Shown here: positions 1,582-9,324 of the stretch, in pieces
How the letters are laid out: each line of letters starts with the position of its first letter
Numbering within the stretch: the first letter of the stretch is position 1
Source of the DNA: a virus
Taxonomy: Duplodnaviria > Heunggongvirae > Uroviricota > Caudoviricetes
DNA length: 12,632 nt
Virus record (IMG/VR): IMGVR_UViG_2695420382_000014
Reading direction: 5' to 3' (one strand)
Made by a program: the position numbers and the translations under genes
The notes under the pieces: model-generated
The model's input: the letters and a program-made list of their open reading frames with translations, nothing else
Databases searched by the model: none
Told to the model about the DNA's origin: nothing

Positions 1582-2139
1582 TCAACAATGAATTTTGAGT
1601 AATTGCTCTACAGTCATATTTTTAATTGCGCCCCGGTTAACAAGAGTCCATCCCTGTTCTTCCAGATAAAACCGGAAAGTCTCCATGGTACAGACCCGTG
1701 CGCCATCAGGAACGGTTTCGGTGAATCTGATGTTGCCGCGTTCGTCGAAGTGAACAACCAGGGTGCGGCCATCGCCTGGAATTATTTTGTCAGTGGGTGG
1801 GGTGTTATTCTGGCGCAGTTCGGCCTCCATGCGATCGAACTCAGCAATGTAGGCTTCTTTAAATGCAGCGGCTTTTTTGCCAGTGAATCCCATCACCAGG
1901 AAAACGAAGCCGTTTTTGGTGATTTGGTACATCGGGCGTTTTTCGCCTTTGGCGTCAGTGTAGGTGACGTCCTCAAAATTGAGGGCGTTAAATTCAGGTG
2001 AGCATTCAGTATTTGCGATGGCACGTAACACATTGTCGTGACGCTTGCCAAAGAACTCTGCGATCGCAATAGACGTAGTGACAGCGCGACCATTTTCGAT
2101 GGTTACGTCAGGGTGAGAAAGGGCAGGGATAGTAGCCAT
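1582..2139 (-). CDS. Rha-family phage regulatory protein (185 aa)
   Basis: N-terminal segment VTIENGRAVTTSIAIAEFFGKRHDNVLRAIAN resembles the Phage_pRha signature. Start placed at internal ATG 2137-2139 (GAGGAT upstream), because the longer track ORF to 2436 would read through a sigma70-like promoter and a hairpin plus U-run. Confidence 0.65.
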   Translation of the reverse strand: MATIPALSHPDVTIENGRAVTTSIAIAEFFGKRHDNVLRAIANTECSPEFNALNFEDVTYTDAKGEKRPMYQITKNGFVFLVMGFTGKKAAAFKEAYIAEFDRMEAELRQNNTPPTDKIIPGDGRTLVVHFDERGNIRFTETVPDGARVCTMETFRFYLEEQGWTLVNRGAIKNMTVEQLLKIHC

Positions 2140-2308
2140 GATGGCATCCTCGAGTGATAAGTTAATTAACTCACCACCGAGGTTTTCCACGACCATAAGG
2201 GTGGTGTGACGTACAGGGGTGGAAATACCGGTCACTCGAGAACCCGGCCAGTCTTGCGACTGCCCTGCACATCCCACCATAATTTGAATGGAGCTGTGCA
2301 TTACGCAT

Positions 2309-2331
2309 AAAAAAACCGCTTCAGCGCGGCT
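2309..2331 (-). terminator. Weak intrinsic-terminator-like hairpin plus U7 run in the Rha leader (minus strand)
   Basis: Minus-strand RNA ...AGCCGCGCUGAAGCGG UUUUUUU: CCGC/GCGG stem 2316-2329 followed by the A-run 2309-2315 on the plus strand (U-run on minus). Stem is short (4-6 bp). Confidence 0.3.
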
Positions 2332-2391
2332 ATGCGCTCGAGTAACGTTCGGGTTTCCACGCCCGGCACCCGTTTTATAAGGTGCAGGTGC

Positions 2392-2420
2392 ACTATAATT
2401 CCACCCGTTCTGGTTTTCAA
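2392..2420 (-). promoter_or_regulatory. Sigma70-like promoter candidate reading leftward toward Rha
   Basis: Minus strand -35 TTGAAA (plus coords 2415-2420), 17-nt spacer, -10 TATAGT (2392-2397). A perfect TATAAT also lies on the plus strand at 2394-2399. Confidence 0.4.
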
Positions 2421-2458
2421 TAGCTACATTCAACATTTTCTCTCACCTTTCATCACCG

Positions 2459-3566: not shown

Positions 3567-3745
3567 GCTGACCTCATTTCCCCTTAACGCCGGGGTGGCG
3601 GAACAAAAAACCTGCTGCATAGTTAAAGATTGAACCCTGCCGTCATGTTCTTACGCCTCGGGCTGGCTACTTAACCCCTGACCACTGTCTGGTAACTCGA
3701 AGTATTGCCCTGCATTCTGTGGGGCGGGGTGGGTTGACGCCTGAA

Positions 3746-5222: not shown

Positions 5223-5644
5223 AAATCAAGCATGAACACATCCGCATGGCGATGAAAGCCTGGGCGCATCCGGACGGTGAAAAAGTTCCGGCAGCTGAAA
5301 TAACCAGGGTTTATTTCGAACTGGGAATGACGTTTCCGGTTCTGCATAACGACAGCAAGCACAACACGCTTTATCTCAACACCCAAAAGATTTTCCGTTG
5401 GCTGGATAAAGACACCCCTGACGCTGTTGAAAAAATTCAGGCGTTGTTACCTGCGATCGAAAGGGCAATGCCACCTCCGCTGGTGGCTCGAATGCGCAGC
5501 CACAGTTCAGCTTATTTTCGGGAACTGGTGGAGACGCATGAACGACTGGTGAGAGACGCTGATGATTTTGTCGCAGTGGCAATCGCCGGTTTCAATCAGA
5601 TGAACCGTGGTGGCCCGGCAGGAAATGCTGTGGCAGTACATTGA
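5219..5644 (+). CDS. YdaT-like protein (141 aa), CII-like regulator or putative toxin of Rac-type prophages
   Basis: Position and size match the Rac racR-ydaS-ydaT arrangement as recalled; translationally coupled to the Cro-like gene. Not confirmed by search. Confidence 0.6.
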   Translation: MKIKHEHIRMAMKAWAHPDGEKVPAAEITRVYFELGMTFPVLHNDSKHNTLYLNTQKIFRWLDKDTPDAVEKIQALLPAIERAMPPPLVARMRSHSSAYFRELVETHERLVRDADDFVAVAIAGFNQMNRGGPAGNAVAVH

Positions 5645-5715: not shown

Positions 5716-6780
5716 ATGGCTAACGCCTGGCTCAGATTATGGCATGACATGCCAAATGACCCTAAGTGGCGAACAATTGCCAGGGTGTCAGGGCAGCCAA
5801 TTGCAACAGTGATGGCAGTGTATATCCACCTCCTGGTGAGCGCGTCACGAAATGTCACGCGAGGTCACATTGATGTCACGACAGAAGATTTGGCAAGTGC
5901 GCTCGACGTGACAGAAGAGGTAATTGATTCAATTTTGCAGACGATGCAGGGGCGGGTACTTGATGGTGATTTAATCACTGGATGGGAAAAACGCCAGGTG
6001 CTTAAAGAGGACAACGGCAATATTTCGCAAACCGCAAAATCTCCTGCAGAGCGCAAGAGGGCGCAGCGAGAGAGGGAAAGAAAGCGGGAACAAAATGGCG
6101 ATTGTCACGGCGCGTCACGAAATGTCACGCACATGTCACGACGAGTCACGACAGATACAGATAAAGATACAGATAAAGAAGATCAAAACACTATGGTCCA
6201 TGGCGTAAAAAACGCCACGAACCAGGCAGGGGATGTTCAGACCGTCAATCCTGGTCAGCCAGCAGGCTCGACACCGGAAGCCGATTCAGCGTATGCGCTG
6301 AAAGCCGATTCGGGCGCTGTGCAGCAGGTGATGACCGCAAGGCCGGAGCAATCACTCCAACTGCAGCAGCCTGAAGCCGATTCCGCCATTCAGCGGGAAG
6401 CCGATCGGGTAGCCCCGGAAAACACCGGGCAGCCTGTGGGACGAGTGGATTATCCGGATGTGTTCGAACAGGTCTGGCGGGAATACCCGTTGCGTGCCGG
6501 GGCAAACCCGAAGAAATCCGCATTCAGTGCCTGGAAGGCCAGATTGCGCGAGGGGGTGCCACCAGAGACCATGCTGGATGGTGTGAGGCGTTACGCGAGA
6601 TACCTGGCGGCGACCGGGAAAGCGGGAACGGAATTTGTTCAGCGAGCGACGACGTTTTTTGGGCCGGACCGGAATTTTGAAAACCCCTGGTTGCTCCCGG
6701 TAAGCGGCACGAACAACCAGCGTTGTGTGAATCATATTTCTGAACCGGATACCGAAATTCCGCCGGGATTCAGGGGGTGA
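5716..6780 (+). CDS. Phage replication initiation protein (354 aa) with DnaT-like C-terminus and internal iterons
   Basis: ATG 5716 with GAGGTG Shine-Dalgarno (track start 5710 is GTG). C-terminal NHISEPDTEIPPGFRG resembles the E. coli DnaT C-terminus as recalled. Two internal GTCACG repeat clusters; followed by a DnaC-like gene. Confidence 0.75.
   Translation: MANAWLRLWHDMPNDPKWRTIARVSGQPIATVMAVYIHLLVSASRNVTRGHIDVTTEDLASALDVTEEVIDSILQTMQGRVLDGDLITGWEKRQVLKEDNGNISQTAKSPAERKRAQRERERKREQNGDCHGASRNVTHMSRRVTTDTDKDTDKEDQNTMVHGVKNATNQAGDVQTVNPGQPAGSTPEADSAYALKADSGAVQQVMTARPEQSLQLQQPEADSAIQREADRVAPENTGQPVGRVDYPDVFEQVWREYPLRAGANPKKSAFSAWKARLREGVPPETMLDGVRRYARYLAATGKAGTEFVQRATTFFGPDRNFENPWLLPVSGTNNQRCVNHISEPDTEIPPGFRG
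5841..5880. repeat. Iteron-like cluster 1: four GTCAC(G/A) direct repeats at 10-11 bp spacing
   Basis: GTCACG at 5844, 5854, 5875 and GTCACA at 5864; inverted copy CGTGAC at 5907-5912. The 20-mer CGCGTCACGAAATGTCACGC at 5841-5860 is identical to 6111-6130. Confidence 0.55.
6104..6150. repeat. Iteron-like cluster 2: five GTCACG direct repeats at 10-11 bp spacing
   Basis: GTCACG at 6104, 6114, 6124, 6135 and 6145, followed by A-rich tandem GATACAGATAAA x2 (6151-6180). Confidence 0.55.
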
Positions 6781-6786
6781 TGTGGC

Positions 6787-7533
6787 ATGAAAAACATTGC
6801 GGCAGCCGGGGTTCTTGAACGTATTCACAGACTTGCACCACAGGGGGCGGTTCCACCGTACCGGACGGTGGAGGAGTGGCGGGAATGGCAACTTGCTGAA
6901 GGACGAAAACGCAGCGAGGAGATTAACCGCCAGAATCGCCAGTTGCGGGTGGAAAAAATCCTGAATCGTTCGGGCATCCAGCCTCTGCACAGCAAATGCT
7001 CGTTTGCGAATTATCAGGTGCAGAACGACGGGCAAAAATACGCGCTGAGCCAGGCCAAATCCATAGCTGACGAACTGATGACCGGGTGCACGAATTTTGT
7101 GTTCAGCGGTAAAACCGGCACCGGGAAAAATCACCTTGCAGCGGCGATGGGTAACTGGCTGATGGCGAAGGGGCGCAGCGTGATTATCGTCACCGTGTCT
7201 GATGTCATGAGCGTGTTGCATGACAGCTACGACAACGGCAAATCCGGTGAAAAATTTTTACAGGAGCTTTGCGGGGTTGATTTGCTGGTCCTGGATGAAA
7301 TAGGCATTCAGCGGGAGACGAAAAACGAGCAGGTGGTATTGCACCAGATAATTGATCGCCGGACAGCATCACTGTGCAGTGTCGGGATGTTAACAAACCT
7401 GAATCATGCCGCAATGAGCACGCTTCTTGGTGAGAGGATTATGGACCGCATGACCATGAACGGTTGTCGGTGGGTGACGTTTAACTGGGATAGCTGGCGT
7501 TCAAATGTCAGCTTTCCGGGAGTTGTGAAGTAA
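6787..7533 (+). CDS. DnaC-like replicative helicase loader (AAA+), 248 aa
   Basis: Strong resemblance to E. coli DnaC: Walker A FSGKTGTGKNHLAAA, Walker B LLVLDEIG, C-terminal WVTFNWDSWRS. Starts 7 nt after the initiator stop. Confidence 0.9.
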   Translation: MKNIAAAGVLERIHRLAPQGAVPPYRTVEEWREWQLAEGRKRSEEINRQNRQLRVEKILNRSGIQPLHSKCSFANYQVQNDGQKYALSQAKSIADELMTGCTNFVFSGKTGTGKNHLAAAMGNWLMAKGRSVIIVTVSDVMSVLHDSYDNGKSGEKFLQELCGVDLLVLDEIGIQRETKNEQVVLHQIIDRRTASLCSVGMLTNLNHAAMSTLLGERIMDRMTMNGCRWVTFNWDSWRSNVSFPGVVK

Positions 7534-8295: not shown

Positions 8296-8718
8296 ATGGC
8301 AAAAGTATTTACACAGGAAGAGCGGGAAAAAATTAAGGGGCAGGTTGTTGAACTCGTACGCCAGAGTGGGCGCGAGACGTTACGACAACTGGAAGCTAAA
8401 ACCGGGGCGACAAGATATTTAATAAGCGTTCTCGCCAGAGAGCTGGTTGCCAGTGGGGATGTATACAACTCTGGCTACGGGTTATTCCCGTCTGAACAGG
8501 CTCGTAAGGACTGGCAAAACGCCCGCAAAAAACTCTCAAGGGCAAATCTGAAGAAACCATCTGTGGTTGATCCTGACCTTATCTGGTCATTACCAGACGG
8601 AGAAATACGCCGCTACGACAGGCGTCAAAACATAATCTGTAGCGAGTGCCGGAAGAGTGAAGTTATGCAGCGTGTACCGGCTTTCTATCAGGGTGATTTT
8701 CAGGAGGCGGTACTGTGA
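8296..8718 (+). CDS. Hypothetical protein (140 aa): winged-helix-like N-terminus plus CxxC-containing tail
   Basis: ATG 8296 after a GGGGG run; the last 41 codons (8596-8718) form the first copy of a 192-bp tandem duplication. Confidence 0.55.
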   Translation: MAKVFTQEEREKIKGQVVELVRQSGRETLRQLEAKTGATRYLISVLARELVASGDVYNSGYGLFPSEQARKDWQNARKKLSRANLKKPSVVDPDLIWSLPDGEIRRYDRRQNIICSECRKSEVMQRVPAFYQGDFQEAVL

Positions 8719-8978
8719 GTGAAATTAGCTATCAGGCTTCAATTACCGCTGGCATTCGCATCAAAGGAGAGGAGCATGGAAATAAAAGACGGAGAAATAC
8801 GCCGCTACGACAGGCGCCTGAATATAATCTGTCGCGAGTGCCGGAAGAGCGAAGCTATGCAGCGTGTACTGGCTTTCTATCAGGGTAATTTTCAGGAGGC
8901 GATACTGTGAATGAAATTAGCTATCAGGCTTCAATTACCGCTGGCATTCGCATCAAAGGAGAGGAGCATGGAAATAAA
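8595..8978. repeat. Tandem duplication, 2 x 192 bp
   Basis: Unit 1 8595-8786 versus unit 2 8787-8978. The 123-bp coding-tail part is about 92% identical; the roughly 69-bp part carrying AAGGAGAGGAGC-ATG is near-identical (one mismatch). Confidence 0.85.
8776..8910 (+). CDS. Small CxxC protein (44 aa) created by the tandem duplication
   Basis: Strong Shine-Dalgarno AAGGAGAGGAG then ATG 8776; product MEIKDGEIRRYDRRLNIICRECRKSEAMQRVLAFYQGNFQEAIL is a diverged copy of the upstream protein's tail. Confidence 0.4.
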   Translation: MEIKDGEIRRYDRRLNIICRECRKSEAMQRVLAFYQGNFQEAIL

Positions 8979-9324
8979 ACCAGAAGATGAGTTAAGCAAT
9001 ATCGTTTTATTTCCGGTAAAAGAGGATGACCCTCGTAATCAGGTTAATTTTCTTTATGAGCCATCGGAAAGACCATATTGCCATCACGCCTCTGTACGGG
9101 TTGACGAAAAAGAGCGTCAGGTCCGCTGTAAAATTTGCGGTGCAGTTGTGGAGCCATTTGACTGGATGCTCTCTGTGGCGAAAAGAGAAACCAGACTGGC
9201 AGATGATGTAAGGCTCTTGCGCCAGGAGGAGCGGGAAAGGCGAAAAAATATAGAAAAGCTAATCCAGATTGAGCGTAATGCGAAAGCGCGGATACGCAGG
9301 GTGACAAAATATAGCCCCGAATAA
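8968..9324 (+). CDS. Hypothetical protein (118 aa) with zinc-ribbon-like motif and basic C-terminus
   Basis: Same SD/ATG module as the 44-aa gene (second repeat copy); contains C-H-H ... CKICG; C-terminus rich in R/E/K. Confidence 0.55.
   Translation: MEIKPEDELSNIVLFPVKEDDPRNQVNFLYEPSERPYCHHASVRVDEKERQVRCKICGAVVEPFDWMLSVAKRETRLADDVRLLRQEERERRKNIEKLIQIERNAKARIRRVTKYSPE

Follow-up and report, generated by a model that had tools for sequence, protein, structure and literature searches.

The subject of this analysis is a 12,632-nucleotide stretch of DNA (the window) from a Caudoviricetes virus (IMG/VR record IMGVR_UViG_2695420382_000014) and, within it, a replication initiator gene ("phage replisome organizer"; positions 5716 to 6780, plus strand) whose coding sequence contains two arrays of short, phased repeats and an A-rich tract, which together probably form a replication origin. 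The open reading frame (ORF) encodes 354 amino acids (aa) and matched PHROG 3729, annotated as "replication initiation protein," with an E value of 3e-250; several "DnaD-like helicase loader / replisome organizer" PHROGs were matched as well. It is followed by a gene encoding a DnaC-like helicase loader (6787 to 7533, plus strand; PRK12377, 500 bits; DnaC PRK07952, 299.6 bits; IstB_IS21), and these profile matches bear out the original prediction, made from the sequence alone, of an initiator gene with a DnaC-like partner. Upstream, we found a YdaT/CII-like gene, a cro-like gene and a divergently oriented repressor gene. This is the early region of a Qin/Rac-like lambdoid Escherichia coli prophage.

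On the plus strand, GTCAC(G/A) was found at 5844, 5854, 5864 and 5875 (spacings of 10, 10 and 11 bp) and again at 6104, 6114, 6124, 6135 and 6145 (spacings of 10, 10, 11 and 10 bp); these nine sites, all within the two arrays, are the only ones on that strand of the entire window. The site scan thereby confirmed the predicted four copies at 5844 to 5880 and five at 6104 to 6150, spaced by 10 to 11 bp, as did a comparison with 2000 dinucleotide-preserving shuffles: five sites within 50 bp and nine within 320 bp were observed, against shuffle maxima of three and four, respectively. We refer to the four-copy array (5840 to 5882) as cluster 1, probably an accessory initiator-binding array, and to the five-copy array (6104 to 6150) as cluster 2, probably the core initiator-binding array of an origin. 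A single inverted GTCACG copy is located at 5907 to 5912 (minus strand). The repeats hold their information in a 6-bp core (7 bp for the other repeat types described below), in direct orientation and with a period of 10 to 11 bp, while the spacers carry little. An exact sequence common to both clusters had been reported as a 20-mer; it is real but is in fact 21 nucleotides long (GCGCGTCACGAAATGTCACGC, at 5840 to 5860 and 6110 to 6130). Because its two copies are offset by 270 nucleotides, or 90 codons, the peptide ASRNVT occurs twice in the protein (aa 43 to 48 and 133 to 138). The accompanying statement that the repeats are in frame holds for these two 21-mers, which share a frame with each other, but not for the individual 10- to 11-bp units, which are distributed over the three frames (G TCA CG, GTC ACG and GGT CAC).

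Cluster 1 encodes aa 43 to 56, i.e., the end of a helix (aa 29 to 45/49) and the loop preceding a helix-turn-helix, whereas the inverted copy encodes D-V-T in the turn of that helix-turn-helix. Cluster 2 and the A-rich repeat encode aa 130 to 160, the start of a disordered interdomain linker that follows a helix at aa 110 to 128. The predicted A-rich tandem repeat after the second cluster was located at 6153 to 6176, where the 12-mer AGATACAGATAA occurs twice; it is part of a longer purine-biased tract (6151 to 6199, plus strand), which probably serves as a DNA unwinding element. A promoter or terminator account of the repeats came down to a single weak promoter-like match on the minus strand, made by the repeats themselves and at the level expected from shuffles. 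DnaA boxes (TTATNCACA, allowing one mismatch at most), which are present in many plasmid origins but not in that of lambda, were absent from both clusters, from the A-rich tract and from their immediate surroundings; the closest lay at 5341 to 5349, upstream, and at 6726 to 6734, approximately 525 nucleotides 3' of the tract, and their total in the window was at chance level.

Homologues were collected as 52 loci, from one genome per species, and 160 viral contigs; a first scan of the latter returned close E. coli relatives only, which were used for copy numbers, and a second, started from another lead sequence, provided diversity. Layout was compared across 128 homologous loci (33 to 69% GC), and synonymous sites were examined in 21 GTCACG-type genes from genomes of 34 to 69% GC. 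In these 21 genes, the codons overlapping the repeats were fixed or nearly so: V47 GTC, T48 ACG, G50 GGT and V54 GTC in 21/21, H51 CAC, S134 TCA and V137 GTC in 20/20, and S44 TCA in 20/21. Almost all other conserved residues used most of their synonymous codons (normalized entropy, 0.58 to 0.99), the sole low value outside the repeats being that of D11 (0.28), and even the codon of R49, which lies in a spacer, varied (0.68). The original prediction had named as the adverse outcome that homologues would keep the peptide and lose the nucleotide periodicity; with the repeat codons fixed or nearly so in these genes, the opposite was seen. The inverted copy was retained too, V65 being encoded by GTG in 21 of 21 genes and most GTCAC-type loci having the copy at a constant offset of +192, which fits recognition of double-stranded DNA. 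Among more distant homologues, the peptide at aa 43 to 56 reads ASRNVTRGHxDVT, ASNATERGRTQ or NAGVTQGNA, depending on the repeat type; these peptide differences follow from changes of the repeat, which affect both clusters at once. On this pattern of codon use, the repeats are conserved as DNA rather than as protein.

Across the Enterobacteriaceae, Pseudomonas, Bordetella, Chromobacterium, Acidovorax and other genera, the elements occupy constant offsets in the gene (approximately +128 to +159, +192, and approximately +350 to +430), and five repeat types could be distinguished: GTCAC(G), GTAAC(GC), GTGAC(GC), CGAAC(GC) and GGAAC(GC). Cluster 2 could be assigned a type in 116 loci, 100 of which also had cluster 1, and in all 100 the two types were identical; cluster 1 was lacking in at most 16 of the 116 and never occurred alone. 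The two-cluster layout, which had been called unusual, does differ from that of lambda but is the norm for this initiator family. A type switch was also seen within a clade, with GTCAC in all 12 copies of locus L025 and GTAAC in its close relatives L020 and L023.

Repeat number, which the original prediction had suggested comparing among homologous prophages, does vary: cluster 1 has four or six copies, through a 21-bp indel, cluster 2 has three to five, and the A-rich hexamer GATA[AC]A is present 3 to 11 times in E. coli relatives. Among these relatives, 78 of 80 loci had four plus five copies in clusters 1 and 2, the other two having one mutated cluster 1 copy; the six-copy cluster 1 belongs to a lineage separate from these 80 loci. 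Of 5426 complete E. coli genomes, 1817 carry the cassette (5716 to 6180), with up to four copies each, and in the complete genome of phage Tritos (46 kb) the only clusters of at least three GTCAC sites were the two in the initiator gene. Locus L220, a 50.9-kb circular Pseudomonas aeruginosa element, carries the first two cluster 1 repeats and their spacer (GCGTCACGAAATGTCACGCG, at 3634 to 3650 of that locus) in a form identical to that of the window, with proteins that are only approximately 70% identical; its third cluster 1 repeat is a perfect palindrome, GTCACGTGAC.

The base composition 3' of cluster 2 is likewise shared by nearly all loci. Over the 40 bp that follow the array, mean AT content was 0.65 (versus 0.46 for the gene) and purine content 0.73 (versus 0.57), the tract exceeding the gene in 111 and 112 of the 116 loci, respectively, and its median AT rank was within the top 3.4% of 40-mers. 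In the window, the AT maximum of the gene falls at 6140 to 6199 (0.62 to 0.68). The tract and a mosaic recombination junction seen there among E. coli relatives are immediately followed, on the 3' side, by an inverted repeat of 13 pairs (TGGTCCATGGCG TAAAAAA CGCCACGAACCA, 6194 to 6224); it scores as terminator-like on the minus strand and may act either as an antisense terminator or as a hairpin close to the origin.

The initiator protein starts with a winged-helix part and a basic helix, which a disordered linker joins to the C-terminal domain and a DnaT-like tail; this tail ends in IPPGFRG, and its match to DnaT was below threshold. AlphaFold (AF2) models place a winged helix-turn-helix at aa 16 to 88 (predicted local distance difference test [pLDDT] scores of 85 to 96; 5761 to 5979, plus strand), with a putative fold like that of the DnaD N-terminal domain, and predict a basic helix at aa 110 to 126 (ERKRAQRERERKRE; 6043 to 6093, plus strand), disorder from approximately aa 130 to 222 and, beyond that, a helical C-terminal domain. 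Thresholds were not reached for PF09681 (Phage_rep_org_N; 16.5 bits for aa 1 to 130, cutoff 23.3) or TIGR01714 (15.4 versus 49.8), and a PDB search with the sequence profile of the initiator gave no matches. Both of these family matches are nonetheless full length, that to PF09681 spanning profile positions 1 to 119 of 121, and a distant kinship with the replisome organizers of these two families is possible.

A candidate for the element that reads the repeats is the basic helix, in which the residues following the invariant R113 agree with the repeat type in 113 of the 116 typed loci. R-K-x-x-Q-R accompanies GTCAC in 34 of 35 cases and R-V-x-x-Y/F-R accompanies GTAAC in 16 of 17, while R-[ASG]-[KR]-x-W-R goes with CGAAC (51/51), R-K-x-x-W-K with GGAAC (8/8) and R-T-R-x-W/Y-R with GTGAC (4/5). 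The CII/YdaT-like neighbor was also considered as the repeat-binding protein but was rejected, as upstream gene cluster U1 is found beside GTCAC repeats, beside GTAAC repeats and in loci that lack repeats. More generally, the 25 GTCACG loci were flanked by upstream genes from at least 16 unrelated clusters and downstream genes from at least 14, leaving the N-terminal domain as the only constant companion of the repeats. Partners of this domain and its repeats include the DnaC-like gene of the window, a DnaT-like C-terminal domain with a lambda P-like gene (L056) and a primase-helicase (L220), and phage Tritos has no loader gene. The initiator of Tritos (L221, 32105 to 33638) and those of many E. 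coli prophages, in which matches cover only positions 1 to 1179 of the query, are indeed found without a downstream DnaC-like gene, and these may work with host DnaC and DnaB alone.

With the mosaic junction immediately downstream of the A-rich tract, the N-terminal domain and both clusters would move as one cassette. Recombination inside the cassette was seen in L146, L037 and L149, in which an N-terminal part of the CGAAC clade (74 to 80% identical) is joined to a helix of the GTCAC type (ERKRxQR) and to a cluster 2 with three GTCAC repeats. Synonymous changes in L146 have disrupted the CGAACG copies of cluster 1 without altering the peptide (e.g., TCG AAC to TCC AAT, still S-N), and L037 and L149 no longer have these copies. 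This decay suggests that the nucleotides of cluster 1 are constrained only where their type matches that of the helix and of cluster 2, and, by the same comparison, cluster 1 is dispensable. In three further loci (L042, 3001 to 4190; L050, 3001 to 4300; and L216), the winged helix is retained and the basic helix, cluster 2 and the linker are replaced by a GIY-YIG-like segment (YVYYVATTDGDVVRVGISRNPWARCKDLK); phased repeats were absent from all three.

We consider it likely that the region is an iteron-type replication origin located inside the gene for its own initiator, with cluster 2 and the A-rich tract as its core and cluster 1 as an accessory. The features generally expected of such an origin are present, namely, phased direct repeats, an adjacent AT-rich tract and a repeat type that covaries with a helix of the initiator, and the frozen codons and the concerted change of repeat type lend support to what was originally predicted to be a prophage origin. 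The N-terminal part of the protein, a DnaD-like winged helix (probably an oligomerization scaffold) plus the basic helix, would bind the phased GTCACG repeats, whose 6-bp cores and 10- to 11-bp period should place them all on one face of the DNA. Cluster 2 would thus hold the protein array and the adjoining tract would be unwound, both at the point in the gene that encodes the interdomain linker, after which the C-terminal domain and the IPPGFRG tail would bring in host DnaB and the DnaC-like loader. Approximately 230 bp upstream, cluster 1 and its inverted copy would form an accessory array of the same specificity, which probably either gives rise to a larger complex (looped or wrapped) or adjusts the firing of the origin. 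What cluster 1 does, and that the initiator binds the repeats, that the DNA is unwound and that the origin fires, is inferred here from sequence, and the match in specificity between repeats and initiator from covariation.

Several observations weigh against this interpretation. The AT-rich tract of the window is modest, its AT content staying at 0.62 to 0.68 over some 50 bp. The covariation between helix and repeat has exceptions (L025, L020 and L186) and is confounded by phylogeny and linkage, as the helix is encoded only about 10 to 60 nucleotides upstream of cluster 2. Approximately 12 homologues have no detectable repeats, so that their origin may lie elsewhere. In addition, the DNA-binding surface of the initiator is uncertain, since the "recognition" helix of its winged-helix domain (aa 67 to 77, TEEVIDSILQT) is acidic and since the N-terminal domain of DnaD is an oligomerization domain rather than a DNA reader. 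Finally, no published description of this initiator family or of its origin was found in the searchable literature.

If the repeats merely reflected selection on the protein, through the duplicated ASRNVT and VTT segments and the DK/DT-rich linker, no function of the DNA would have to be invoked. The invariance of ASRNVTRGHxDVT in the first alignments and the common frame of the two 21-mers seemed compatible with this, but the units occupy three reading frames, codon choice is fixed at the repeat positions only, in spite of the wide range of GC contents, L146 keeps the peptide while losing the repeats by synonymous change, the peptide of distant homologues differs with the repeat type, and the inverted copy is conserved as well; we regard this explanation as largely refuted and hardly credible. 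Only slightly better placed, and still very improbable, is a role at the level of RNA (mRNA structure or sites for a protein or small RNA) or as "linker" sequences promoting modular phage recombination. The mosaic junction falls exactly at the A-rich repeat and the (AGATAA)n tract, with its 3 to 11 hexamers, resembles a microsatellite; yet conserved inverted copies (that at +192, many in L023 and L025, and the L220 palindrome GTCACGTGAC) speak against a strand-specific RNA signal, the repeats matched no Rfam family, and a linker role would leave both the five concerted type switches, in clusters 230 bp apart, and the 10- to 11-bp phasing unexplained.

More serious, though in our view unlikely, is the proposal that the repeats bind the initiator or another phage protein for regulation, as an autoregulatory roadblock, a titration or handcuffing device for copy control or a fork barrier, with replication truly starting elsewhere. 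Cluster 1 lacks an adjacent AT-rich tract (AT content of 0.47 to 0.57 at 5880 to 5960) and is dispensable, both in as many as 16 of the 116 loci and in the recombinants, and there are parallels for such sites: SPP1 G38P, bound at a second site, has been proposed to stall forks (PMC6316719), and the extra iterons of Shiga toxin (Stx) phages are weakly bound yet needed for efficient replication (PMC7466680). For cluster 2, this proposal is harder to reconcile with the full signature of iterons plus AT-rich tract in 111 of 116 loci, with a complete Tritos genome that offers no other repeat cluster as the real origin and with an upstream CII/YdaT-like gene that is uncorrelated with repeat type. 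In the narrower form, in which only cluster 1 is regulatory, the proposal is plausible, and it is mainly there that we would apply it; an origin centered on cluster 2 and the A-rich tract remains our preferred explanation.

Origins within initiator or organizer genes have experimental precedent in lambda and the Stx phages (PMC7466680), in oriL of SPP1 (PMC5737612, PMC6316719) and, as summarized in PMC8965321, in TP901-1 and Tuc2009. The origin of lambda and the Stx phages likewise falls within the initiator gene, where this encodes the linker between a DNA-binding N-terminal domain and a loader-binding C-terminal domain, and consists of phased initiator-binding repeats followed by an AT-rich tract; there, too, N-terminal domain and origin are exchanged as one specificity cassette, and the number of iterons varies between relatives, adding in-frame residues to the protein (PMC7466680). 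The differences are nonetheless considerable. Lambda has 19-bp iterons that are inverted repeats, whereas the cores found here are direct, 6 to 7 bp long and placed every 10 to 11 bp; a second array lies approximately 230 bp upstream, within the coding sequence of a folded domain; and a DnaC-like partner takes the place of lambda P, although in L056 the cassette is accompanied by a P-like gene. Since Phage_rep_O (lambda O) was not matched even at an E value of 10 or below, the initiator does not belong to the lambda O family. The Eru1 to Eru3 replication types of Stx phages also proved to be different modules.

A similar arrangement is known from gene 38 of SPP1, in which the replisome organizer G38P binds direct repeats in its own gene (oriL), likewise mid-gene, beside an AT-rich unwinding element (PMC5737612, PMC6316719), and from ORF13 of TP901-1 and Rep2009 of Tuc2009, with direct repeats in the organizer's own gene and an adjoining AT-rich element (PMC8965321). 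Homology to G38P was not supported (hhalign probability of 0.05), G38P itself matching only Phg_2220_C. The second SPP1 site, oriR, has an AT-rich region of its own and lies approximately 13 kb away, whereas here the distance is 230 bp within the same gene, phage Tritos has no distant GTCAC cluster and the hosts are Proteobacteria. The N-terminal domain of DnaD, a protein of chromosomal initiation in Firmicutes, is also among the closest known systems.

The ydaU-ydaV module of the Rac prophage (oriJ, E. coli K-12) shares the gene order (repressor, cro-like, ydaT/CII-like, initiator, DnaC-like), the C-terminal tail (D/E)xxIPPGFRG of YdaU and the presence of mid-gene repeats. Identity with oriJ was rejected, however, given that the N-terminal domain of YdaU is DUF1376, unrelated in sequence, and that its repeats are different (ATGTTCAA-like). 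In the K-12 Rac ydaU gene itself (L053, 4261 to 4563), we noted five direct copies of these ATGTTCAA-like repeats followed by a DKDTDKD-type linker, which may be the sequence basis of oriJ.

What is new here is a bipartite array with one part inside the coding sequence of a folded domain, together with five concerted specificity types. This cassette is often annotated as "hypothetical protein," and defining the origin would provide an annotation for a large class of prophages of Proteobacteria, among them phages of Pseudomonas, Aeromonas and Bordetella. Prophages with one and the same repeat type may activate one another's origins or prove incompatible. Moreover, the type switches, the recombinants and the helix covariation constitute a natural data set on how specificity evolves when the binding site is itself coding, and they suggest a testable route to orthogonal replication origins. 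A bolder interpretation, which we put forward tentatively and believe to be rather doubtful, is that the cassette is self-referential: the binding sites would also encode the protein that binds them, namely, the loop preceding the helix-turn-helix, its turn and the linker beside the specificity helix, and cluster 1, more than an enhancer, would act as a specificity lock or else as an element for handcuffing or a fork barrier. Any change of specificity would then require coordinated changes in the protein and in both DNA arrays, something that would have happened five times, and these concerted rewrites would point to a readable recognition code, a simple "helix residue to base" relation at R113+1 and R113+4. 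Such a code could serve the design of orthogonal phage origins, and cluster 1 could allow up to four coresident prophages in a genome to discriminate between, or to cross-fire, their origins.

Elsewhere in the window, two adjacent Rfam matches above the gathering score, C4 antisense RNA (2197 to 2284, minus strand; 70.9 bits) and the Hfq-binding RNA isrK (2309 to 2385, minus strand; 61.2 bits), overlap or flank an ORF at 1582 to 2436 (minus strand); this looks like a P1/P7-type antirepressor-control region in a lambdoid prophage. Downstream of the replication genes, a 192-bp tandem duplication (8595 to 8979; 2.0 copies, 94% identical) extends across several small ORFs. Beyond it, between 9539 and 12450, two ORFs of 610 and 360 aa are similar to those that, in an annotated E. 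coli prophage, encode a methyltransferase of the HsdM family and a restriction endonuclease of the BsuBI/PstI family; they would be restriction-modification cargo in the early-right region of the prophage.

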